Shown piece after piece: positions 1 through 63,801 of a stretch of DNA of 64,000 bases. A program made the translations under genes and the position numbers. The stretch is from positions 1 to 64,000 of the forward strand of contig CAJFOS010000013.1 in the NCBI GenBank assembly GCA_904397865.1, in the 5' to 3' direction. The notes beneath the pieces were generated by a model. The model searched no databases and was not told the DNA's origin. It saw only the letters and a program-made list of their open reading frames with translations. This DNA comes from Candidatus Allochristensenella caecavium. GTDB taxonomy: Bacteria; Bacillota; Clostridia; Christensenellales; QAND01. Every line of letters begins with the position of its first letter. Position 1 is the stretch's first letter.

Positions 1-173
1 ATATAATTTAAAATAAAATTGATATATCAGTTTTTTCTCCTATTGATAAGAAAACATAACAAAAGAGGAATGGAACGAAATTGTCTGATTTTCCGCGCAA
101 GGTAAAGCCGGTGATGCAACAAACCAAAGGCCTCACAAATATGAAATGAAGGCAGTCGGTGAGATTTTCAGAA

Positions 174-204
174 AGTAACCGGTAGAAATGTCGGTTACTT
201 TTTT
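174..204 (+). terminator. Rho-independent terminator of an upstream gene outside the window
   Basis: GC stem gtaaccg/cggttac with a 4-6 nt loop, followed by TTTTTT, immediately before the kinase gene RBS. Confidence 0.5.
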
Positions 205-226
205 GATAAGAGTGAGGTGAGACCGT

Positions 227-1513
227 ATGAGTGAACTGAGGTATGCCAATATCGCGCTGGATATTTTCAGCATGATGCTATCCTCGCTGCCCGTTATTTA
301 TCTGATTAGCAACCATCGATATCGGCTAAAGCTGAATCAATATTTTTTGGGAATATGTCTTTCGAATATTCTCATGACAGTGGGAGACTTGGGGGACTGG
401 ATGATGCCCGCCGTCATCACGCTATCGGATAGGGTGACGCTGATGGTTCTTACGGTTCTCTATTATGCGGCCTCTGCATTTATCTTATATTTTTTTATAC
501 GGTATATCATAGAATACCTGCAACTGAGAGGGCGTGTAAAACAGGCATGCTTGCTTTACACAATATGCCTTTGCAGCGTACAGATTATTTTTGCCGCAAT
601 AAGCCCGTTTACCGGTTCGATTTTTCGTGTTACGGTTGACGGATATCAACGCGGTCCGTTGTTTTTGTTATCACAGTTCATCCCGTTGTTTTGCTATATT
701 CTTTGCATCGTGCTGGTGATTGCCTATCGAGATAAGCTTTCGCGGCGGGAAACGATGTTCTTTTTGCTCTATATCTTTCTTCCGTTGGGCAGCGGTACTG
801 CCCAGATGGCCATGCGAGGAATTGCCGTAGTCAATGCAAGCCTCACCATTGCCATGTTATTGATTTTAATGAATATTCAATTTGAACATGAGGTGGCGAT
901 GAAAGAGCAGGAAAAGGAGCTGGCCGAACGGCATATTGATGTCATGCTCAGCCAGATACAGCCCCATTTTCTATATAATTCGCTAAGTGTTATCTATCAT
1001 TTGTGCGAAGAAAATCCTGGAAAGGCGCAAAAGTCCATCAAAGAATTTTCCGCATTTCTGCGCGGAAATATGAATAGTTTGAAAGCCCGCAAACCGATTC
1101 CGTTTGAAACGGAACTCAACCATGTTATGAATTACCTTTATTTGGAACGGCAGCGGTTTCAGGAACGGCTGCATGTGGTCTGCCAGATACAGACGACGGA
1201 TTTTTACATTCCGCCTTTAACGCTCCAACCGCTGGTAGAAAATGCCGTGCAGCACGGGATTCTCAACAAAGACGAAGGCGGCACTATTTCCATCTGTACA
1301 AACAGGACGGCGGAATATGCCATTGTGACCATCATGGATAACGGAATTGGTATGGAAAAGGCGAAGACCTATACGGCGCATGGCGCGCACGCCCACATCG
1401 GGATTGAAAATGTCCGCCAGCGATTGAAAAGCATGGTCAACGGCACATTGGATATTGAAAGCAATGAACGTGGAACAGTGGTTACGCTGCAAATTCCGTG
1501 GACGGGGAGATAG
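227..1513 (+). CDS. Sensor histidine kinase, LytS/YehU-type, multi-TM N-terminus
   Basis: About 6 hydrophobic helices N-terminal. QIQPHFLYNSLSVI matches the His_kinase (PF06580) phospho-His motif. C-terminal GHKL ATPase motifs (ENAVQHG, DNGIGM, GTVVTLQIP). RBS GAGGTGAG upstream. Confidence 0.85.
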   Translation: MSELRYANIALDIFSMMLSSLPVIYLISNHRYRLKLNQYFLGICLSNILMTVGDLGDWMMPAVITLSDRVTLMVLTVLYYAASAFILYFFIRYIIEYLQLRGRVKQACLLYTICLCSVQIIFAAISPFTGSIFRVTVDGYQRGPLFLLSQFIPLFCYILCIVLVIAYRDKLSRRETMFFLLYIFLPLGSGTAQMAMRGIAVVNASLTIAMLLILMNIQFEHEVAMKEQEKELAERHIDVMLSQIQPHFLYNSLSVIYHLCEENPGKAQKSIKEFSAFLRGNMNSLKARKPIPFETELNHVMNYLYLERQRFQERLHVVCQIQTTDFYIPPLTLQPLVENAVQHGILNKDEGGTISICTNRTAEYAIVTIMDNGIGMEKAKTYTAHGAHAHIGIENVRQRLKSMVNGTLDIESNERGTVVTLQIPWTGR

Positions 1514-1525
1514 GAGGCGAGCACG

Positions 1526-2332
1526 ATGCGTTTTTTAGCGGTAGACGACGAAATCTATATACTGGAAGAAATGGTCAAAATCCTCCGCCGTGTCCAGCCC
1601 AAAACGGAAGTGCTGTCCTTTACGCGCCCGGATGAAGCGATTCGGGCGGCTGAGCGACAAACAATTGATGTTGCGTTTTTAGACATCCATCTGGGGAAAA
1701 TGTCCGGTTTGGAGCTTGCAGTGAGACTCAAAAATATCAAGCCGGATATGCACATTATTTTCGTAACGGGCTATCAGGAATACGCTGTGGATGCATTCCG
1801 CATGCATGCAACGGGATATCTGCTCAAGCCGGTGGATGAAAATGATGTAAAGCGGGAATTAACGTTTATTTACGAGGAAGCCCCCCAGAGAAAGAGGATA
1901 TCGGTACAAACCTTTGGCGGATTTGAACTGTTTGTAGACGGACGGCCAGTTCATTTCGGCCGTGCGAAATCCAAAGAGCTGCTGGCCTACCTGGTGGACC
2001 ATCGGGGGGCAGTCGTTACGGCGGCGGAAGCGCGAGCTGCGCTGTTTGAGGAAATGGGGAATACTGGTACGTCCAAGAGTTACTTTCATCAACTGGTGTA
2101 TGAACTAAAAAATGCCTTAAAGAAGGCAGGGGCGTCGGAAATCCTTACCAAAGGATTTAATGGCTATGCCGTTGTCCCGGAAAAATTTGACTGCGATTAT
2201 TACCGGCTCCTGCAAGGGGACCCAATTGCCATTAATCAATACCAGAATGATTATATGCCGTTATATAGTTGGGGAGAAGCGCACAACGCCGAACTCTGGC
2301 TCAAGCATGTATATGCCACCCCGCCTGAATAA
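1526..2332 (+). CDS. Response regulator: receiver domain plus OmpR/SARP-type winged-helix DNA-binding domain
   Basis: Receiver signature (VDDE...DIHL...K). C-terminal FGGFELFVDGRPVHFGRAKSKELLAYLV...LWL pattern typical of trans_reg_C/SARP wHTH. 13-nt gap to the kinase gene, so an operon. Confidence 0.8.
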   Translation: MRFLAVDDEIYILEEMVKILRRVQPKTEVLSFTRPDEAIRAAERQTIDVAFLDIHLGKMSGLELAVRLKNIKPDMHIIFVTGYQEYAVDAFRMHATGYLLKPVDENDVKRELTFIYEEAPQRKRISVQTFGGFELFVDGRPVHFGRAKSKELLAYLVDHRGAVVTAAEARAALFEEMGNTGTSKSYFHQLVYELKNALKKAGASEILTKGFNGYAVVPEKFDCDYYRLLQGDPIAINQYQNDYMPLYSWGEAHNAELWLKHVYATPPE

Positions 2333-2397
2333 AAAGCAATATCCGTTCATCGGGGAACCAATGGCAGGGTAGCTGCATCAGCGCACCATTGCCGGCA

Positions 2398-2436
2398 AGC
2401 AAAAGCTCCGGGAGAAACTCCTCGGAGCTTTTGCTT
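2398..2436 (+). terminator. Rho-independent terminator after the two-component pair
   Basis: Inverted repeat aaaagctccggg-agaaac-tcctcggagctttt followed by a T-rich tail. Confidence 0.55.
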
Positions 2437-2523
2437 ATTGTGATTTAACCGGCGGATTTGTAAGGGTTTTGTGATGCGCGGTCAGTAGAATGAAATTGTA
2501 TAAGCAAAGAAGTGGGGGATACC

Positions 2524-3516
2524 ATGACAATTTTGCTCGTTGACAGCGATAAAAGGGCGCTGGACCGGGAAGCCAAACGCCTGGCGGACCAGCAATCTGC
2601 CGCCATGGTTGTCCTGCACAGCAACGCCAACGATGCCTTGAAATTTGCAATGTATCATGATGTGCATATTGTTTTTACAAGACCCGCACTGGTGGAGATG
2701 TCCGGCCAAGAATTGATTGAAAAAATACTTCGCTTCAAGCCGGAAGTGGAATGCCATATGCTCGCACAGGGCGAGGAAGTTCCGCTTGTGTACTTTCTGG
2801 GTAAAGACAAAGATGCGTTCCGTTCCGAGAACGTAAGTGACAGCCACACAAAGATGAATGATACAAAAGGTGAAATGCATACAATCAAGAATAAGAAGAG
2901 GTCGGGAAACGATTCTCCTCAAGAGGGGCAAAAGAAAGGCGATACACATATGACGGAACGGCAGTTACGCAGTTTGGGCAGAAAAGAACTTTTGGAAATG
3001 ATGATTGAACAGGGAAAAGAACTGGAGTTTGTCAAATCGGAACATGCAAAAGATTTGGAATTTGTAAAAGCGGAGCACGAGAAAGAAATAAATGCGTTAA
3101 AACAAGAGCTGGAGAAAGCCCGCGCAGCCCTGCAGAACCGGGAAATCGCTATCAATGAAGCGGGCTCGATTGCGGTGGCGGCCCTTCAGATAAACGGGAT
3201 TTTTGAAGCGGCGCAGGCCGCGAGCCAGCAATATATCGAAAATATCCGTACGCTCAATGACCGGCAGGCGGCGCTCTGTGCCCAGCGGGAGGAAGCAAGC
3301 CGGGCCGAAGCCGAACGGCGGCTGAGAGAGACGGCCGCCAAATGTAAGACCATGGAGGCGGCGTGCCGGGACAAATGCGCGGCGATGGAACGCGATGCAC
3401 AACAGCGTTCGGAAGCATACTGGACGGAGGTTTCCAAACGCCTGCAATCATTCTATGAGAATCATCAGGAGCTGAAAAAACTCCTGGGTTATAGCATCCC
3501 AGGGATTCAAATATAA
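2524..3516 (+). CDS. Hypothetical protein: degenerate (pseudo-)receiver domain fused to a long coiled-coil
   Basis: N-terminal 100 aa align to the upstream receiver (ILLVDSD...VHIVFTRPALVEMSGQEL), but the phospho-acceptor Asp position is T/R. Low-complexity linker, then a heptad-rich coiled coil with the tandem repeat ELEFVKSEHAKDLEFVKAEHEKE. RBS GTGGGGGA. Confidence 0.6.
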   Translation: MTILLVDSDKRALDREAKRLADQQSAAMVVLHSNANDALKFAMYHDVHIVFTRPALVEMSGQELIEKILRFKPEVECHMLAQGEEVPLVYFLGKDKDAFRSENVSDSHTKMNDTKGEMHTIKNKKRSGNDSPQEGQKKGDTHMTERQLRSLGRKELLEMMIEQGKELEFVKSEHAKDLEFVKAEHEKEINALKQELEKARAALQNREIAINEAGSIAVAALQINGIFEAAQAASQQYIENIRTLNDRQAALCAQREEASRAEAERRLRETAAKCKTMEAACRDKCAAMERDAQQRSEAYWTEVSKRLQSFYENHQELKKLLGYSIPGIQI

Positions 3517-3529
3517 ACGGAGTGCCGGT

Positions 3530-4114
3530 ATGAAACGCAAATCAATCACCTGTTTGCCCACGGTACAGCAACTGGAGCAGGAACTGAAACGGGAAGCCTA
3601 TCGGAAGCGGTATCGGAGAATGTTGGGCAGTACGATTTCGACGCTCATCGTTGTGGCGGCGGCTGTCGTGCTGATATCCCATCTTTTGCTGCCCATCCTG
3701 CGGATTTACGGTACGTCGATGACGCCGACTCTGACGGACGGCAACATTGTTGCAGCTATAAGAAAAGGTTCCTATGAGCGCGCAGACATCATCGCTTTTT
3801 ATTACAATAACAAAATTCTGGTAAAACGTGTGATTGGCTTGCCGGGGGAATGGATAGACATGGATGAAAACGGCAATGTGAGCATCAACGGGCAAACCTT
3901 GCAGGAGCCGTATTTGAAAGAAAAAGCGTTCGGGGAATGTGATATCCAGTTCCCTTACCAGGTGCCTGACAGCCGATATTTTGTCATGGGAGACCATCGC
4001 AGTGTTTCCAGCGATTCCCGTAACAGCGATGTAGGGTGTGTGTCAGAGGAGGATATCGTGGGGACGTTGGTCTTTCGGCTCTGGCCGCTGAACGAATTGG
4101 GCGAGATTGAATAG
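3530..4114 (+). CDS. Signal peptidase I, SipW/archaeal-ER type, pilus-associated
   Basis: N-terminal TM. Box B GTSMTPTL (Ser nucleophile). Box D VMGDHRSVSSDSR (His general base, SipW type). Sits immediately upstream of the pilin genes, as SipA/LepA does in streptococcal pilus islands. Confidence 0.8.
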   Translation: MKRKSITCLPTVQQLEQELKREAYRKRYRRMLGSTISTLIVVAAAVVLISHLLLPILRIYGTSMTPTLTDGNIVAAIRKGSYERADIIAFYYNNKILVKRVIGLPGEWIDMDENGNVSINGQTLQEPYLKEKAFGECDIQFPYQVPDSRYFVMGDHRSVSSDSRNSDVGCVSEEDIVGTLVFRLWPLNELGEIE

Positions 4115-47883: not shown

Positions 47884-48619
47884 GTGCAGCCCCTCCTATC
47901 CGCCCCTTTTCAATGCGGATACACGCATCCGCATACCGCGCCGCTATCTGTTGGGAATGCGTGACCATAATCAGGTGTTTGCCGCGGCTTTGCACAAAAT
48001 GTTCCAGGCTTTGGATGATGAATTGTTCTGTCTGCGGGTCGAGTGCGGCAGAGGGCTCGTCCAGCAAATAGGTTTGGGCATCCATCAGTAAGACGCGAGC
48101 CAGGCACAGCCGTTGACGCTCCCCGCCGGAAAGGGTGTCGCAATACGCCTGCAATGGCTGCGCGAGCCCCACCTGTTCGAGCATGTAGGCCAGTGTATCT
48201 CGGGTAGCAGGCGGCTTTTGTGCAAAACGCAGGCCAATTTGTAGATTCTCTTCGATTGTGCCGCTATAGATTACAGGAGTCTGTCCCAGCATGACTACCT
48301 GGCGGCGCAGCACAATGGGGTCAATATCGTCCAACGAAACACCTTGATAATCAATCGTCCCGCTATCCGGCACATACAAACGGTTCAGGTGTCGTAAAAG
48401 CGTTGTCTTACCGCTGCCTGAGGCGCCCACGATACAGGTAACTGGGTGGGTGATGGTCAGATGGGGGATATCCAGAATCCGTTTATAAATCAAATGGTCA
48501 ATGGTAAAAACCGGAACCTGTCCCATGATGCCTCCTTGTACAATCTCTTGCATGTCCGTCATGGCGGTAAAGGCGGGCCTCATAGAAAGAGCAAAGCCTT
48601 TTCCATGCGTTATAGACAA
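47876..48619 (-). CDS. fetA: ABC transporter ATP-binding protein FetA/YbbL-like
   Basis: Walker A GASGSGKTT, LSGGERQRLCLAR, Walker B YLLDEP. No TM. Confidence 0.75.
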   Translation of the reverse strand: MSITHGKGFALSMRPAFTAMTDMQEIVQGGIMGQVPVFTIDHLIYKRILDIPHLTITHPVTCIVGASGSGKTTLLRHLNRLYVPDSGTIDYQGVSLDDIDPIVLRRQVVMLGQTPVIYSGTIEENLQIGLRFAQKPPATRDTLAYMLEQVGLAQPLQAYCDTLSGGERQRLCLARVLLMDAQTYLLDEPSAALDPQTEQFIIQSLEHFVQSRGKHLIMVTHSQQIAARYADACIRIEKGRIGGAAHA

Positions 48620-48773
48620 AGCTTATAAGATTATACCACTGAAGGCGCAATAAAAAACATGCATGCAAACAGCGGAAGTAATGCTGCACACCCCCGCAAT
48701 TGGGGAACATGACGGCATGCACAAATAAGAAACGGCCGCGCTTTTTCTGCTACAGCCGTTTTTTGTTTGAGGG

Positions 48774-49181
48774 TTATAGGATGCGATGGTTTTTTTGTTC
48801 GTATAAAATCAGCAGGCTCCTCAGATTTTGTGACACTGCCTGCGGACAATCCTGTATCAGCTGCAGGAGCAACAGAATTTCTGTTTCCTGTAGGACGGAA
48901 TGCATGGCTTGCTCTATCTGTCCAGCAGGATGCAAAAATTCTACCACCGACACGCCAAAGTAATCGCAGATGTCGCACAATCCCTGCAGAGAGGGAACGA
49001 ATAATTTAGCATACAGCTTACTGAGATAGGAGGCATCCTTGCCCATTTCCAGGCTGATTCGGCTATCGCTGTAATTTGTTTTTCCACTATACGCCTGCAG
49101 ACGCCCACAAATTAAATCAAGCAATTCTTCCAGCGCTTCACTTTTTTGCTTTTCTGAAGGACGGTTTTTCTTCTCTTGCAA
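48774..49181 (-). CDS. XRE-family helix-turn-helix transcriptional regulator
   Basis: ISLEMGKDASYLSKLYAKLFVPSLQGLCDICDYFGVSVVEFL HTH_3-like segment. Confidence 0.6.
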   Translation of the reverse strand: MQEKKNRPSEKQKSEALEELLDLICGRLQAYSGKTNYSDSRISLEMGKDASYLSKLYAKLFVPSLQGLCDICDYFGVSVVEFLHPAGQIEQAMHSVLQETEILLLLQLIQDCPQAVSQNLRSLLILYEQKNHRIL

Positions 49182-49259
49182 AATGATGCCTCCTTTCCTT
49201 TCTTAATTTCATTATAGAGAATTAGATTCAACACCAAGCGCCGCGGATTCTATAAAATC

Positions 49260-50015
49260 ATGTATTTCGCTTGTTTTTTTGAATTGCTGTCATTATTATG
49301 GTTTTATCGCCTAATTTTTTCGGGAATATCCGGCAATTTTTACGCGCGTTTCTTTATTTTTAGGATAAGGAAACCAGAAACGAAAGGAGGAGGATTTGAA
49401 ATCGGCACGAATTATCAGCCCGCTACATATGGGGAAAAGTTGTTGTTTGACCTGCGCATTTCGGCCGCGTTCAAAGGCCATGATTATTTGGCAAAAGCGA
49501 TAGATTTGTCGTTGCAGGATGTAGCGCTCCTGGAGAAAGGAGGGATATTCGAACGGGTTGCGCAGTTTTATCAGGTGGACGCGTCGTGCATTCAAACGGT
49601 CATCAAGACCGCGCTGGGTCACGCCCAAAACGGAACGCTTCTCTATACGATTATCGGGACGGATTATTCGCTGAATATCCATCCGATGAAGTTCCTGGGC
49701 AGCGTGTATTGGTATATCAACGGCGTACGGCCATTGTTACACCCTGGCGTACGAAACCGGCTGACGCCGCTCGGATACGCGGCGCTGGTGCTGCGGCACC
49801 GGGAGAATCATACCTTTGCTGAAATTGCGCAGATAAAGGGGACAACTTACAGCAATGTCTGCGCGGCTTACCGGTATGCGTTGCGAGTGGCGCGCTGCCT
49901 GCTTTTTGACCGGCAGAACAGGCCGAATCAATACCTGATGTATATGTACTGCGTGGACGAGGAGCAGATTGAAACCATTGTCGCCATGGAAAAGCGTCTG
50001 CAGGTACGGCGTTGA
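49260..50015 (+). CDS. Hypothetical regulator-like protein; start codon uncertain
   Basis: Open frame with RBS AAAGGAGGAGG at 49383 but no canonical ATG nearby (possible TTG 49438). C-terminal LVLRHRENHTFAEIAQIKGTTYSNVCAAYRYALRV resembles a sigma-70 region-4/LuxR-type HTH. Confidence 0.35.
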   Translation: MYFACFFELLSLLWFYRLIFSGISGNFYARFFIFRIRKPETKGGGFEIGTNYQPATYGEKLLFDLRISAAFKGHDYLAKAIDLSLQDVALLEKGGIFERVAQFYQVDASCIQTVIKTALGHAQNGTLLYTIIGTDYSLNIHPMKFLGSVYWYINGVRPLLHPGVRNRLTPLGYAALVLRHRENHTFAEIAQIKGTTYSNVCAAYRYALRVARCLLFDRQNRPNQYLMYMYCVDEEQIETIVAMEKRLQVRR

Positions 50016-50050
50016 AGAAGGGTCGGTCATCACGCGGGACCGTCAGGAAG

Positions 50051-50470
50051 TCACCACCGTACTTCGGATGAATACAGGGTGTAATCTCCTGCATCGGTGA
50101 AGAATAATACGCGTGCCCGATAGCGATATCCTTTGGTGGGCGATACGTATTTTTGCAGATAGACTTCACCTTTTCCACTTTGTTCGAAGGTGTTCACACC
50201 TACCCAACTCACACCGTTATACCGTTCCAAAACCGCATAAATACGGGCATTGGTAGAATCGTTGTTGGCAACGGCAGAAGCGTAGAGTTTCATCTGCTTG
50301 CTGTCGTATTTGGTCAGGCTGCATGCGACTTGCACAGCAGCGCGGGGCTGTACGTCTTGCGTGACTATGTGTTCCGTGCTCGGAACAGCGCTGGCAGGCG
50401 CGGCATATGCTGGGACGCACCCCAGCAGCACAAGCGCGGCACACAGGGCGCCAATTAACTGTCTTTTCAT
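50051..50470 (-). CDS. Small secreted protein of unknown function
   Basis: Signal peptide MKRQLIGALCAALVLLGCVPAYAAPASA after RBS AAAGGAGAAAG. Beta-rich, no recognisable domain. Confidence 0.55.
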   Translation of the reverse strand: MKRQLIGALCAALVLLGCVPAYAAPASAVPSTEHIVTQDVQPRAAVQVACSLTKYDSKQMKLYASAVANNDSTNARIYAVLERYNGVSWVGVNTFEQSGKGEVYLQKYVSPTKGYRYRARVLFFTDAGDYTLYSSEVRW

Positions 50471-50561
50471 TTCTTTCTCCTTTGATTGGGTTATCCGTGA
50501 TGACCGATCAATTAATAAGTCCGGCCAAAATACCAAAACCGGACAAAAAAGGAGAGATAAA

Positions 50562-51071
50562 ATGAAAACATTTGAAGACCTATGGCTGGCCCACAAACAA
50601 AATCTGTATCAATACTTACTTGTTTGTGCCCGCCAACGTACCGATGCGGACGATTTGCTGCAAACCGTTGCATGCAGAGCGGGTAAATCGTTTGACAAGT
50701 TGCGCAACCCCGAGCGTTTCACCGCCTGGTTGATGCGCATCGCACGCCGCGTAGTAGCGGATTATTACACAGAACTAAATAAGTTGCCGTATTATGAAGC
50801 CAATCCGAATAAGTTAACCACACTTACGCAGATGACTGGTTGTTATGTACGGGATTTCTCCGATGACGTTTTGATGACTGCCGTCGTCACCGATTTTATT
50901 CTCAGTTTGGATGAACCATGGGCGTCCGCATACTATCTGTATTTCTTTATGGGCATTCCCATTCGGGAATTGAGCACGATGGTCAATAAGACGCAAGTGG
51001 CTACATACAAACACATCTATCGGCTGACGCAGGAATTGAAAAAGCGGCTCAAAGGAGGAAATGAACATTGA
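50562..51071 (+). CDS. ECF-subfamily RNA polymerase sigma factor
   Basis: Region 2 (DADDLLQTVACRA...FTAWLMRIARRVVADYY) and region 4 HTH (IPIRELSTMVNKTQVATYKHIYRLTQELKKRL). RBS AAAAGGAGAGA. The track ORF at 50298 starts too early. Confidence 0.75.
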   Translation: MKTFEDLWLAHKQNLYQYLLVCARQRTDADDLLQTVACRAGKSFDKLRNPERFTAWLMRIARRVVADYYTELNKLPYYEANPNKLTTLTQMTGCYVRDFSDDVLMTAVVTDFILSLDEPWASAYYLYFFMGIPIRELSTMVNKTQVATYKHIYRLTQELKKRLKGGNEH

Positions 51072-51681
51072 ATACCTGGAAAAAAATCCGTACAGAAAAC
51101 CGAAAAAAATGGAAACACAACGAGGGTTTTTACACGTTTCAATTTCCGATGAAAAGATGAAGGCATGTTTGACACAGGCACCGCAAACGCAAACGTCCCG
51201 GCGCGTGCGGAGACGGCCGGTGGTGGCAGCGATATGCACGCTGGGGCTTGTGCTGGCCATGGTCTGTACGCCTTTGGGCAGTTACGCCACGCAGCTTCTG
51301 TTTCAGCCCGTTTCTACACAAAAACCGACGGAACAGATTCACCCCCATTATGGATTCCAGCAAGAGGCGCCCCTTACATGTCTGAGTGAAAAGACGCTGG
51401 ATGGAGTTATCACGCGCGTCTATCAGTACAGGGATTTTCACGTGCGACTGACAGAGGACCACAATCAGATGGATGCTTCTGCCCAGATTCAGGACAAAAC
51501 GGACGGGACGTTTTTTACAGCAGAGCTATGCGGGACACAGGCACAGTGTTATCAGGATGCAGACGGTGCAATCGCTTTTATCAGCGATGTTTCATTACCT
51601 TGTACATTACGAATCGCTGTTTCAGGCGCCATTGCGCGCGAAGACTTTCTCTTTCTGCTTTCGCAGATTCAACGCCTATAA
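51061..51681 (+). CDS. Putative anti-sigma factor (single-pass membrane protein)
   Basis: Start overlaps the sigma gene stop. Short cytoplasmic N-terminus, one TM (VVAAICTLGLVLAMVCTPL), extracytoplasmic C-domain. Confidence 0.5.
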   Translation: MNIEYLEKNPYRKPKKMETQRGFLHVSISDEKMKACLTQAPQTQTSRRVRRRPVVAAICTLGLVLAMVCTPLGSYATQLLFQPVSTQKPTEQIHPHYGFQQEAPLTCLSEKTLDGVITRVYQYRDFHVRLTEDHNQMDASAQIQDKTDGTFFTAELCGTQAQCYQDADGAIAFISDVSLPCTLRIAVSGAIAREDFLFLLSQIQRL

Positions 51682-51689
51682 CGTCCTAT

Positions 51690-51718
51690 AAAAAGGAAGG
51701 GAATTTCCCTTCCTTTTT
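51690..51718 (+). terminator. Rho-independent terminator
   Basis: aaaaaggaagggaatttcccttccttttt. Confidence 0.7.
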
Positions 51719-52090
51719 ATGTATGTTCATTTTTGGATAGAAGATAAAAGAAGACAGACAGGCTATCCAATGCACGCAAACGCCGGAGAAAACTTTGAAA
51801 AACAGCTTAAATGGGGATTTATCCATAAAAAAGAGGTCAAATTGGACTCATCTGATTTTTGAGTTCCAAATTTTGGCCTCTATTGACGTGGGCTTACATT
51901 ACAAAGAGACATTCGACCAAAAACATGCGTGAACAGGCAAAATAAAAAACTGAGCTTGGAACGCGATTTACATCCAGGTTCAGTCCTGTGGGTTTGCGCT
52001 ACAAAAAGAGATACCGTTATAAAAGCGAGCACAAAGCCATAGATAAAAAATAGAGCCCCGCACGCGAATTGCGTGCCGAGGCTCGCGGCT

Positions 52091-60287: not shown

Positions 60288-60457
60288 GCGTTCACCCCCC
60301 TTGTGACGAAAGGAAAATCGAAACAACACTTTGTTTGCGTTTTAGTATACCAATTTAGCGAGCGATTTACCAGCCTTGGGCAGATGTGCTATAATCATGC
60401 AGGTCATCGGAGCGGATTTTATCCGCTCTTATGAATAAGGAGTCAGGAGGTACAACG

Positions 60458-61453
60458 ATGAAAAAGCGAATGGCATGCATGCTTGCCCTGTTGGTGGTTG
60501 GTATGGTGGCAATTGGCTGCGGCGGCGATAAACAGGAACCACAAGCGTCGGTCAGCCCGTCGCCGGCCCAGGGCGATGTGGCGCGCGACCCGCTGAACGG
60601 GTCAACGGAGGTGCACGAATATAAACCCATCATTTCGACGATTGATAACGCGGAGCAAGCGCGCCCACAGGAAGGGATTCAGGCGGCCGATATCGTATAT
60701 GAAATGCAGGTTGAGGGCGGAATGACGCGCTTGATGATTGTGTTGAACAGCGAAATACCCGAACAGATTGGGCCGGTGCGCAGCCTGCGGCAGTATTATG
60801 CGCAGGTTGCCCAGGAGTACGACGCAGTGGTCTCGCATGTCGGAGGACCGCATAACGGTGACGTGCTGGATATATACAAATATCTGGAGAAAAACCCAAT
60901 CAAGGTGCGCGTCGACGGGCTGTATGACAGTAAGCGGATTTATCGGGTGAGCGAGCGTAAAAAACCGCATAATGCGATGCTGGACACCAAGGCGGCGTTG
61001 GAAAAATACGATTATACACCGACGGTACGCAGCTTCCCGTTTGACCCGGCCTACGTGCCCACGGATGGCGATGCGACCCAGGTGACGATTGAGTTTGCCG
61101 CCAACGGGTTTGATGTAACGTACACATATGATGCGGCCACGGGCCTGTATACCCGCAGCCAGGGGGGCAAGGAGCATAAGGATGCGTTGACCAATAAAGC
61201 GGTGACGGTGAAAAACATCATCGTGCAAAAGGTAAAATATACGAATTACCCGGGTGGCCAGTTGGCAGATGTGATAGGCAGCGGAGAGGCGACGGTGATT
61301 AGCAACGGGAAAAAGACGGTAGGCACGTGGAGCAAAAAGAGCGCGACGGAGCCCACGGTATTCAAAGATGCCAATGGAAATGAGATTCCGTTGCAACCGG
61401 GCAATACCTGGATTCATATTCAACCGGATAATTTATCCTTGACCTGTGAATAA
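60458..61453 (+). CDS. DUF3048-domain lipoprotein (YerB-like)
   Basis: Lipobox AIGCGG. IISTIDNAEQARPQEGIQAADIVYEMQVEGGMTRLMIV typical DUF3048 N-domain. RBS GGAGTCAGGAGG. Confidence 0.6.
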   Translation: MKKRMACMLALLVVGMVAIGCGGDKQEPQASVSPSPAQGDVARDPLNGSTEVHEYKPIISTIDNAEQARPQEGIQAADIVYEMQVEGGMTRLMIVLNSEIPEQIGPVRSLRQYYAQVAQEYDAVVSHVGGPHNGDVLDIYKYLEKNPIKVRVDGLYDSKRIYRVSERKKPHNAMLDTKAALEKYDYTPTVRSFPFDPAYVPTDGDATQVTIEFAANGFDVTYTYDAATGLYTRSQGGKEHKDALTNKAVTVKNIIVQKVKYTNYPGGQLADVIGSGEATVISNGKKTVGTWSKKSATEPTVFKDANGNEIPLQPGNTWIHIQPDNLSLTCE

Positions 61454-61512: not shown

Positions 61513-61710
61513 GAAAAAATGGAAGAGAACACGCCTTTTTTCGTCAAAGATTGGGGAATTTGCGCAAACAGAGGTTGACGCGGGCGATGGGCTCGCGTAT
61601 ACTCGATTTATTCCCACATATATATTGTTATCTGCGTTTTTTGGAAAAGACCTGCGATTTTCGCAGTGTCCCTTTGTTTTGTGTGTTTGCATATTGAGAG
61701 GAGTCATTTC

Positions 61711-63462
61711 ATGGACCGACAGACCTATATGAAAAAAGGCCTTTTGGAGCTGCGCAACATTGCGGCGTATTTAGAGATTCCAGACTGGGCGGATTTACGC
61801 AAGGCGGAATTGGTGGATGCGATTTTAGCGCACCCGCACCCCGTGGACAGCGTGCCGGAGGAAGCGGAACCGGTGGTGGAGAAAAAGCGCCGCGGGCGGC
61901 CGCCCAAACAAACCGATGCTGAAGCGAAAACGCCGGCCAAGCGCGGACGTCCTGCCAAGAAAAAGGAAGCGGACAGCCTGCCGGTTCCGGTGGGAGAAGA
62001 ACAGACGGCTGAACCGGAGACGGAAGCGGCGCCCGCTCCGGCCAAAAAGAGGGGACGGCCCCGCAAAGCGGCAGCCGAAACCGTGCCGGATGAGGTGCCC
62101 CAACAGGAGGAACAGGCGAAAGAAAATCCGGCAGAAAACACAACGGCCAGCCCAGCGGATGTACCACAGCTGTCTGTGGAAGAGCATAATGACCATGTAC
62201 CAAAATGGTCACGTCCCTGGAACCGGGGGCGCGGACAGGCGGAACCGTCTTCCAATGCGCCGAAGGAAGCGGTGGCGGAGTTGTTGCAGAGCGGAGAGTG
62301 CGGGGTGTGTGAAGGCACATTGGAAGTGCTGCCGGACGGATATGGATTTTTACGCAATTCGCAGATTCCGGGGCAGCGGGATATCTATGTATCCAACGCA
62401 CAAATTCGCCGGTTCAACCTGCGCACAGGCGACTGCATCCGTGGGAAGACAAGGCCCAACAGCGACGAGGACAGGCGGCTGGCGTTGTTGTATATTGATT
62501 CAATCAACGATATGGACCCGCATCAGGCAGCCCTGCGCACCCCATTTGACGAACTGACGCCGATTTATCCCAATGAACGGCTGACATTGGAAACACCGGG
62601 TACGCCGAGCGAGCTTTCCCTGCGGCTGATTGACCTGATTGCGCCGATTGGCAAAGGGCAGCGTGGAATGATTGTCGCCCCGCCCAAATCCGGCAAAACG
62701 GTGTTGCTGAAAAAGATTGCCAACGCGATTTCCGCCAACCATCCGGAGGTACAGCTGATTGTGCTGCTGATTGATGAACGGCCGGAAGAGATGACGGATA
62801 TGCAGCGTTCCATTCAGGGGGAGGTGGTGTATTCCACCTTTGATGAACAGCCCGAACACCACACGCGGGTGGCGGAAATGGTGCTGGAACGGGCCCAGCG
62901 CATGGTGGAGCACGGCAAGGATGTCGTGATTTTATTGGACAGCATCACACGGTTGGCGCGGGCCTACAACTTGACGATTTCACCAACGGGACGGTCGCTT
63001 TCCGGTGGGCTGGACCCTGGCGCCCTGTACAAACCCAAACGCTTTTTTGGCAGCGCGCGCAATATTGAAGAGGGCGGAAGCTTAACGGTTATCGCCACGG
63101 CGCTGGTGGATACGGGTTCGCGGATGGATGATATCATCTTTGAAGAGTTCAAAGGTACGGGCAATATGGAATTGCACCTGGACCGGAAGATGAGCGAAAA
63201 ACGCATTTTTCCCGCGATAGATATTTACAAAAGCGGCACGCGGCGCGATGATTTGTTGTTGGATGAGAAGGAGATACAGTGTGTCTGGGGGTTGCGCAAG
63301 GTGATGGCGCACACTTCACCGGCAGATGTGATGGAGACGTTGCTGAGCACCATGCGGCGCACGCCGAACAACGTCGCGTTTGTGCAGAACATGCAGGCAT
63401 ATCTGCGGATGATGGAAAAGGAAGGCTTCTCCTTCCCGCGTACGGATGACAAGCGTGGCTGA
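61711..63462 (+). CDS. rho: Transcription termination factor Rho with ~150-aa N-terminal insertion domain
   Basis: Rho_N helix bundle ([29 protein letters not shown]). K/R/P/A/E-rich insert. CSD RNA-binding ([13 protein letters not shown]). Walker [20 protein letters not shown] loops. C-terminal [26 protein letters not shown]. Confidence 0.9.
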
Positions 63463-63495: not shown

Positions 63496-63801
63496 GTGCA
63501 TATGTTATATGCAGATTTGATTGCGATTGCAGTTCTTTCAACGATGGTGGACCGGATGTGCAAGGGCGCCGGCATCAAAAGCGGTCGGTATATTGGCGCG
63601 TTTGTGTGCATCTGGATTTCGGCAGAACTGATGGGATACGCAATTGGCACGTCGCTGCAGCTGACGGGCATATGGCTGGGGATTGTATCGCTGGCGGCAG
63701 GCGTTTTGGGCGGCATGATTGTATTTTTACAGACTAAAAAAGAGACGGACGCCTTGAAAAAGCAAAAAGAGGAACAACAAAGGCCGAAACTGGAAGATTG
63801 A
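63496..63801 (+). CDS. Small membrane protein of unknown function
   Basis: Three hydrophobic helices, KKQKEEQQRPKLED tail. Conserved position between rho and rpmE. Confidence 0.4.
   Translation: MHMLYADLIAIAVLSTMVDRMCKGAGIKSGRYIGAFVCIWISAELMGYAIGTSLQLTGIWLGIVSLAAGVLGGMIVFLQTKKETDALKKQKEEQQRPKLED

Follow-up and report, generated by a model that had tools for sequence, protein, structure and literature searches.

Three AT-hook motifs in the predicted disordered N-terminal insertion of a transcription termination factor Rho from Candidatus Allochristensenella caecavium

Insertion domains are common in the transcription termination factor Rho, and few of them have been studied. Those that have been studied are disordered and are required for RNA binding and for the choice of Rho utilization (rut) sites, and all of them act by raising or redirecting RNA binding (PMC13650167, PMC12360218, PMC11347177). 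The published survey characterises such insertions by compositional motifs alone. It gives the motifs 'RxR', 'APA', 'QN' and 'EDDV', among which AT-hooks are not named, and for Bacillota of low guanine plus cytosine (GC) content it proposes only that the added Rho regions might serve other functions (PMC11347177). Here we describe a Rho protein whose insertion carries three AT-hooks. It is encoded by the rho gene in a stretch of 64,000 nucleotides from Candidatus Allochristensenella caecavium (assembly GCA_904397865.1, contig CAJFOS010000013.1, positions 1 to 64,000 of the forward strand), and this whole stretch is called the window below.

Among the described Rho proteins, those of the actinobacteria Mycobacterium tuberculosis and Micrococcus luteus have insertions that resemble the one in the window Rho in their site between Rho_N and the cold-shock domain, in their length of ~150 amino acids (aa) and in their disorder. 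By analogy the role is likely shared as well: the insertion would extend the primary RNA-binding site and govern which rut sites are chosen (PMC13650167, PMC11347177). Sequence homology is absent, however, and the window insertion has an acidic net charge, its basic residues being gathered in three discrete canonical hooks; the actinobacterial genomes are moreover high in GC, whereas the host here is mid-GC. The phase-separating Rho of Bacteroides thetaiotaomicron and the prion-like Rho of Clostridium botulinum likewise have disordered, lineage-specific insertions at the equal site of Rho, with regulatory behaviour. The insertion of the former is ~309 aa long and that of the latter is N/Q-rich, whereas the window insertion has 8.4% N+Q and AT-hooks as its selected elements. 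A prion-like character of the window insertion was rejected on account of this N+Q content, the insertion being rich in P, E, A and K instead.

Three further systems lie outside Rho. CarD of Myxococcus is also a protein of the transcription machinery with an unfolded module, ~140 aa long, that combines an acidic segment with repeated RGRP hooks (PMC4374960). In CarD the acidic part comes first and there are four hooks, whereas the window Rho interleaves its hooks with acidic spacers; the CarD domain is restricted to myxobacteria, whereas the module described here sits inside an RNA translocase. Like the window insertion, the HMGA1/2 module is disordered, and an acidic region follows its three canonical hooks, the flanks of which read P-[KR]-[KR]-RGRP-[KR]-K. 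The window insertion thus has what characterises an HMGA-like domain, namely several RGRP hooks and an acidic segment in an unfolded chain, as an architectural resemblance alone. The host protein and the kingdom differ and beyond the hooks no homology was detected, and to judge from the sequences the likeness is probably convergent and at the level of the motif. Finally, the extended AT-hook (eAT-hook) of Tip5/BAZ2A, PTOV1 and GPBP1 likewise surrounds a GRP core with basic residues, but its basic patches are 6-20 aa away from the core, whereas the window hooks are directly flanked. Hook-type peptides can favour structured RNA over DNA (PMC4615771). Rho insertion domains and AT-hooks are each well known, and it is the occurrence of AT-hooks in Rho that appears to be new: no paper linking AT-hooks or HMGA-like modules with Rho was found, within an incomplete searchable literature. 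Protein databases may already flag the AT-hook in these Rho proteins automatically.

The insertion of the window Rho comprises 145-155 aa between Rho_N and the cold-shock domain (aa 42-196), which follows from the Pfam domain bounds and from the alignment with the E. coli Rho structures, as these re-align at their residue 43 opposite residue 192 of the query. N-terminal insertion domains of Rho classically occur at this site. Rho_N stands at the start of the protein and the RNA-binding domain begins at aa 201, so the protein belongs to 'Type 2b' (Moreira et al. 2024), which is defined by Rho_N at the start and at least 25 extra aa between Rho_N and the RNA-binding domain (PMC11347177). The gene and its main parts are as follows; pLDDT is the predicted local distance difference test score.

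61711..63462 (+): rho coding sequence, 583 aa plus stop, with an ATG start and GAGAGGAG upstream
61735..61827 (+): Rho_N helix bundle (aa 9-39), Pfam PF07498, E = 3e-4, helices with pLDDT 83-90
61834..62298 (+): N-terminal insertion (aa 42-196), predicted disordered, with alternating basic and acidic blocks; from pLDDT, charge segregation and the E. coli alignment
62311..62520 (+): RNA-binding cold-shock domain (aa 201-270), i.e. the primary RNA-binding site, PF07497, E = 5e-26
62620..63234 (+): RecA-type ATPase domain (aa 304-508), PF00006, E = 1.5e-26

The sequence RGRP is found in the insertion at aa 61, 78 and 114 (nucleotides 61891-61902, 61942-61953 and 62050-62061), each time between basic flanks. 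The three hooks are:

61879..61908 (+): AT-hook 1 (aa 57-66), PF02178 at 17.4 bits, conserved across the clade
61933..61965 (+): AT-hook 2 (aa 75-85), 15.2 bits, restricted to relatives of >92% identity, with synonymous changes only in the RGRP codons
62041..62067 (+): AT-hook 3, AKKRGRPRK (aa 111-119), 21.1 bits, restricted to relatives of >92% identity, with synonymous changes only

When the insertion was scanned alone, it matched the Pfam family AT_hook (PF02178) in three stretches with 22.0 bits, the gathering cut-off being 17.4; hook 2 by itself is under this cut-off. The family was absent from the Pfam listing of the full-length Rho scan and was reported when the insertion was scanned alone. 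The hooks follow the canonical pattern [KR][KR]-R-G-R-P-[PRA]-K. They have a G-R-P core, an R before it and K/R flanks within 1-5 residues, in agreement with the definition of the AT-hook (PMC4615771), and their setting is predicted to be unstructured (pLDDT 35-45 across aa 51-196). The eAT-hook, defined as (K/R)>3 - X6-20 - GRP - X6-20 - (K/R)>3 (PMC4615771), was considered and rejected: in all three hooks basic residues abut the core on both sides, and the hooks are therefore canonical and not extended. Hook 3 with its preceding proline (62038-62070, aa 110-120) agrees with the hook of yeast TFIIIC tau91 at 10/11 residues, a motif-level match (E = 0.98) that is the sole PDB sequence match to the N-terminal region; one of the queries made with the insertion gave no match in PDB, and the other gave only this hook. 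A Rho hexamer would bear 18 hooks, placed around the crown that carries the primary RNA-binding sites.

Chance hardly produces such an arrangement. In 200,000 composition-preserving shuffles of the insertion three RGRP motifs never occurred together, and at least one occurred in 0.5% of the cases. Among the six-frame open reading frames of at least 100 aa in the window (47,496 residues) RGRP is confined to these three sites and to one antisense match that lies over hook 3. A recent tandem duplication of the hooks was rejected, as DNA repeats over the hooks were not found and the three RGRP motifs differ in their codons.

The composition of the insertion (of 155 residues: P 23, E 23, A 22, K 14, V 12, R 11) gives a net charge of -4, i.e. 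it is acidic, and a fraction of charged residues of 0.35. It is conspicuous that the charges are arranged in blocks. Each of the three hook blocks has six K/R, and the acidic proline-rich spacers between these blocks and the fourth basic patch have 4, 7 and 11 D/E; the segregation of charges tops all but 0.02% of the shuffles (p about 2e-4). In the AlphaFold2 model, based on an alignment of 26 sequences, pLDDT is below 50 over aa 51-196 and the three canonical domains are folded confidently, which predicts an intrinsically disordered insertion. The blocks outside the hooks that can be delimited are:

61966..62040 (+): acidic proline-rich spacer (aa 86-110), 7 D/E and no K/R, by charge count
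62068..62196 (+): acidic tail-like segment (aa 120-162), 11 D/E and 1 K/R, by charge count
62197..62238 (+): fourth basic patch (aa 163-176), not an AT-hook, with two tryptophans, by charge pattern and alignment

In the relatives the fourth patch has its counterpart in a basic R-P...R-R patch, which is loosely conserved and lies equally far upstream of the AVxELL helix.

A sequence-only reading of the window had already noted that about 150 aa are inserted between Rho_N and the cold-shock domain and that they contain three RGRP motifs, at 61888-62067, matching the AT-hook core. The domain bounds (61834-62298), the positions of the motifs (to within a few bases) and the PF02178 score all bear this out, and AlphaFold2 agrees with the disorder for which that reading had proposed predictors. 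Its description of the insertion as rich in K, R, P, A and E holds for the residue counts; the net charge is however acidic rather than basic, and the fourth basic patch is to be added.

The conservation of the hooks was followed in the homologues. At the position of hook 1, which is ~20 residues past Rho_N, 23 of the 30 best homologues have RGRP and 2 have [KR]GRP, the motif is degraded to RGR in 2, and 3 have nothing. In the 26-sequence alignment, part of which was picked for having hooks, neither G62 nor R63 varies, and R61 and P64 each reach a conservation of at least 90%; no other column of aa 35-191 reaches this level. Hook 1 is conserved in relatives down to ~55% identity, and it is intact in relatives in which the insertion is 20-28% identical and the remaining protein 70-75%. 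Hooks 2 and 3 are confined to relatives of 92-95% identity. Against the two homologues P0002 and P0003, the twelve RGRP codons have 6 and 7 synonymous changes, respectively, and no amino-acid change, whereas the remaining insertion has 19 and 37 amino-acid changes next to 20 and 24 synonymous ones (Fisher p = 0.03 and 0.003). By these codon comparisons, purifying selection acts on hooks 2 and 3 among the relatives of 92-95% identity. Within the insertion, selection on the level of sequence thus falls on the three hooks alone, and the spacers evolve freely and nearly neutrally.

Most relatives have a single hook. Other lineages possess extra copies of their own, some of them as tandem repeats: in P0010 three hooks (aa 62, 83, 104) are 21 aa apart inside exact tandem repeats with a unit of 21 aa, and P0236, whose cluster includes a Rho of Mogibacterium timidum, has three hooks (aa 68, 137, 210) in exact repeats of ~70 aa. 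In these two lineages the number of hooks, as read from the repeats, grows by duplication, unlike in the window Rho.

The spread of the hooks was estimated from a search of 1.84 billion cluster representatives, which listed 150 diverse Rho proteins, 132 of them with a recognisable cold-shock domain; this set is the neighbourhood of the window Rho (which itself falls in the 50% cluster of P0007) and not an unbiased census. A basic-flanked RGRP is located upstream of the cold-shock domain in 30/132 representatives, 6 of which have two or three hooks, and about a dozen further representatives have variants of the form [KR]-x-GRP-[PRK]-[KR]. In total RGRP was counted 39 times, as compared to 1.45 +/- 1.19 in shuffles, a 27-fold excess. 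The same four residues in other orders occur 0-7 times each, except for GRPR (24), which overlaps RGRP-R. The flank consensus across the Rho insertions, P-[AP]-[KP]-[KR]-[KR]-RGRP-[RPK]-K, is that of a canonical AT-hook. The hooks prefer the vicinity of Rho_N, i.e. their median relative position is 0.21 and 34/39 are in the first half of the insertion (p = 2e-6).

Among the named carriers are Christensenella sp. MSJ-20, Caldicoprobacter faecalis, C. oshimai, Mogibacterium timidum, Mageeibacillus indolicus and a Lachnospiraceae metagenome-assembled genome (MAG). The nearest named proteins to the window Rho, from 'Clostridia bacterium' and Christensenellales, are at most 63% identical to it. A background sample of bacterial genomes, apparently a broad mix of phyla and not the nearest species, was examined with a pattern scan. 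Among the matches listed, RGRP is present in 2/65 Rho loci (a Bacillota MAG and the spirochaete Pleomorphochaeta), two further loci have a hook-like GRP (one of them in Kapaibacterium), and a hook-like GRP is seen in 4/22 insertion-bearing loci. In a small random sample of these matches, too few for significance, the hook-bearing loci have 33-54% GC and none of the 6 loci with at least 60% GC has a hook. From the sequences compared, the hook-bearing Rho spans several orders of Clostridia and is sporadic outside Bacillota.

The sequence-only reading had considered that the RGRP motifs might not be kept even among close relatives; this is not the case, given the invariant G62 and R63 and the purifying selection on hooks 2 and 3. 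The AT-hook insertion is on the other hand not specific to one lineage, contrary to what that reading had assumed, in view of its presence in 30/132 representatives and beyond Bacillota. That reading had spoken of orthologues across Oscillospirales; the named near relatives are Christensenellales or unclassified Clostridia, not demonstrably Oscillospirales.

What the hooks do can be approached by analogy. We tentatively favour, with a confidence a little short of even, the reading that the disordered insertion is an HMGA-like array of AT-hooks whose members would serve as auxiliary nucleic-acid anchors and aid RNA capture by an otherwise ordinary Rho. The hooks would act as anchors of low specificity that insert into the groove of base-paired nucleic acid beside the loading site, most likely that of stem-loops in the nascent transcript. 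The outcome would be a faster and longer capture by Rho of transcripts with weak C-rich rut sites, comparable to what the arginine-rich actinobacterial insertions do, and the acidic spacers would probably restrain the hooks, much as HMGA hooks are restrained by the acidic tail. We infer the binding of nucleic acid by the hooks, their preference for RNA and the effect on termination. RNA capture was ranked first because the studied Rho insertions act on RNA and because binding to RNA stem-loops is documented for the canonical AT-hooks of HMGA1 and Tip5 (PMC4615771).

Several points weigh against this reading. Those bacterial AT-hooks for which we found experiments bind AT-rich DNA and not RNA, as seen in CarD (PMC4374960); binding of AT-rich DNA is likewise described for WhiB7 and for the RGR motifs of H-NS and Lsr2, which are hook-like. 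The strict proline and the HMGA-type flanks fit a DNA minor-groove mode at least equally well. The insertion is net acidic (-4), whereas the actinobacterial insertions are arginine-rich. Finally, the hook was lost in the near relatives P0011 and P0022 and is degraded in P0019 and P0021, so it is not indispensable.

A strong rival, possible though doubtful, is that the hooks tether Rho to DNA. Rho would be held on the nucleoid or on AT-rich DNA, either intergenic or horizontally acquired, near transcribing RNA polymerase or R-loops, and termination would be biased by DNA composition besides the rut content of the RNA. The consensus of the Rho insertions is indeed that of a canonical DNA-type hook, with an invariant proline and flanks P-x-[KR][KR] and [RPK]-K, and the near identity of hook 3 with the tau91 hook (10/11 residues) points in the same direction. 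CarD offers a bacterial precedent, being a transcription protein whose unfolded domain combines four RGRP hooks with an acidic segment (PMC4374960), and all bacterial AT-hooks with experimental data that we found bind AT-rich DNA. The hooks adjoin Rho_N, a member of the HeH/SAP clan of nucleic-acid-binding folds (PMC11347177), and the low to middle GC of the hook-bearing loci (33-54%, with 0/6 at 60% or above among the matches listed, too few for significance) is in line with tethering. However, DNA binding is no known requirement of Rho, the characterised insertions all act on RNA, and the genome, with ~53% GC, is not AT-rich.

A more specific version, which we consider unlikely, is that in the Rho of many Clostridia and a few other bacteria DNA-type hooks and the SAP/HeH-like Rho_N together form a module that reads AT-rich duplexes. 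Such a module would station the terminator on AT-rich chromatin, either intergenic or horizontally acquired, or at R-loops, and termination would be targeted by DNA composition even on C-poor transcripts, which make bad rut substrates. If true, this would place xenogeneic silencing or R-loop surveillance inside Rho itself. We know of no H-NS-type silencer in the lineages of hook-bearing Rho.

It is also unlikely, and slightly more so, that the insertion is first of all a condensate driver, i.e. that hooks and acidic spacers form a multivalent block polyampholyte that phase-separates or clusters Rho, with or without RNA, and regulates its activity as in B. thetaiotaomicron (PMC12360218, PMC10284900). 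This reading is compatible with both the RNA-binding and the DNA-binding models, and it would agree with the predicted disorder, with the 18 hooks per hexamer, and with the charge pattern, i.e. a segregation seldom reached by shuffles (p about 2e-4), a charged fraction of 0.35 and a net charge near zero. Yet selection acts on an exact motif of 7-9 residues and not on bulk composition or charge, the spacers being nearly neutral and the relatives mostly having a single hook. A generic sticker needs no invariant G-R-P, and the reading leaves unexplained why the exact G-R-P is kept despite the drifting spacers.

Protein docking is improbable in our view. In this reading the basic-flanked RGRP is a short linear motif that recruits RNA polymerase, NusG/NusA, a protease or another regulator. 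In its favour, RGRP is short and conserved, lies where the chain is disordered, keeps a roughly constant spacing from Rho_N within the clade and shows an equal positional bias across lineages. The consensus is however indistinguishable from a nucleic-acid-binding AT-hook, a partner is not known, and the distant lineages with their variable copy number and absolute position are better explained by a generic ligand such as nucleic acid than by a co-evolving partner. The least probable alternative, by a wide distance, is that RGRP arose by chance as functionless filler in a low-complexity spacer containing K, R, P and G; the insertions vary greatly in length and sequence and some relatives have no hooks, but the statistics contradict it, namely the 0/200,000 shuffles with three RGRP, the 27-fold excess over the 132 representatives with no comparable count for other orderings save the overlapping GRPR, and the core codons with synonymous changes only around the invariant G62 and R63.

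With an element of 4-9 residues that is discrete, under selection and mutable, the function of an insertion becomes a question for point mutants. The hooks are found in about a quarter of the nearest insertion-bearing Rho representatives and in cultured organisms, i.e. Christensenella sp. MSJ-20, Mageeibacillus indolicus, Mogibacterium timidum and Caldicoprobacter. If the hooks bind RNA, as we favour, they are a new route to extend the primary binding site of Rho; if AT-rich DNA is their target, they would couple Rho directly to the composition of the DNA, which would be a new principle of factor-dependent termination.

As far as can be judged from its sequence, the window Rho is the ordinary housekeeping Rho of the organism, since it scores above both NCBIfam Rho equivalog cut-offs (NF006886 and TIGR00767; 618.6 bits vs 315 and 586.3 vs 509.45) and since the context rho/rpmE/prmC/prfA recurs on independent contigs. 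There the full gene order is rho, a gene for 99 aa, rpmE, DUF1385, prmC and prfA. The three-domain architecture of Rho is present (PF07498, which is weak, PF07497 and PF00006), and Walker A and B are readable in the translation. The mechanical open reading frame (61666-63462, +) opens at a GTG at 61666; the true start is the ATG at 61711, as judged from GAGAGGAG before it and from the identical start in gene calls on independent metagenome contigs. The protein was recovered on five contigs from different samples with G173A as the sole difference, so the insertion is no assembly artefact. G173A (62227-62229), which lies within RGRG of the fourth basic patch, is also the single residue that separates the window Rho from the database protein P0001.

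The remaining features in and near the gene are:

62257..62286 (+): short helix (aa 183-192) that resumes the Rho N-terminal domain past the insertion, from the AlphaFold2 model, the alignment and the E. coli alignment
62299..62310 (+): CGVC (C197, C200) directly before the cold-shock domain, clade-specific
61575..61603 (+): promoter-like site TTGACG-17-TATACT upstream of rho, by consensus match alone

The CGVC adjoins the first cold-shock strand within the motif SGECGxCEG, and C197 is invariant in the 26-sequence alignment. Among the 132 Rho cluster representatives a CxxC at the cold-shock junction is seen only in the 50% cluster of the window protein. To judge by its sequence, the CGVC may form a site sensitive to redox state or metals where the insertion meets the RNA-binding domain. 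Rfam, promoter and terminator scans of the rho leader and flanks gave nothing at gathering score. Upstream of rho, at 60431-61453 (+), there is a gene for a DUF3048 protein with a lipoprotein-like N-terminus (…AIGCGGD…), which is syntenic on related contigs. Between rho and rpmE, 63496-63801 (+) encodes a small hydrophobic protein without a Pfam match; related contigs have the gene in the same position, where it is called with 99 aa. The GC content of the window is ~53%. Two of its stretches, 1-4000 (47.5%) and 48001-52000 (48.1%), lie below this average and could be candidate AT-richer islands with regard to the idea of DNA tethering.

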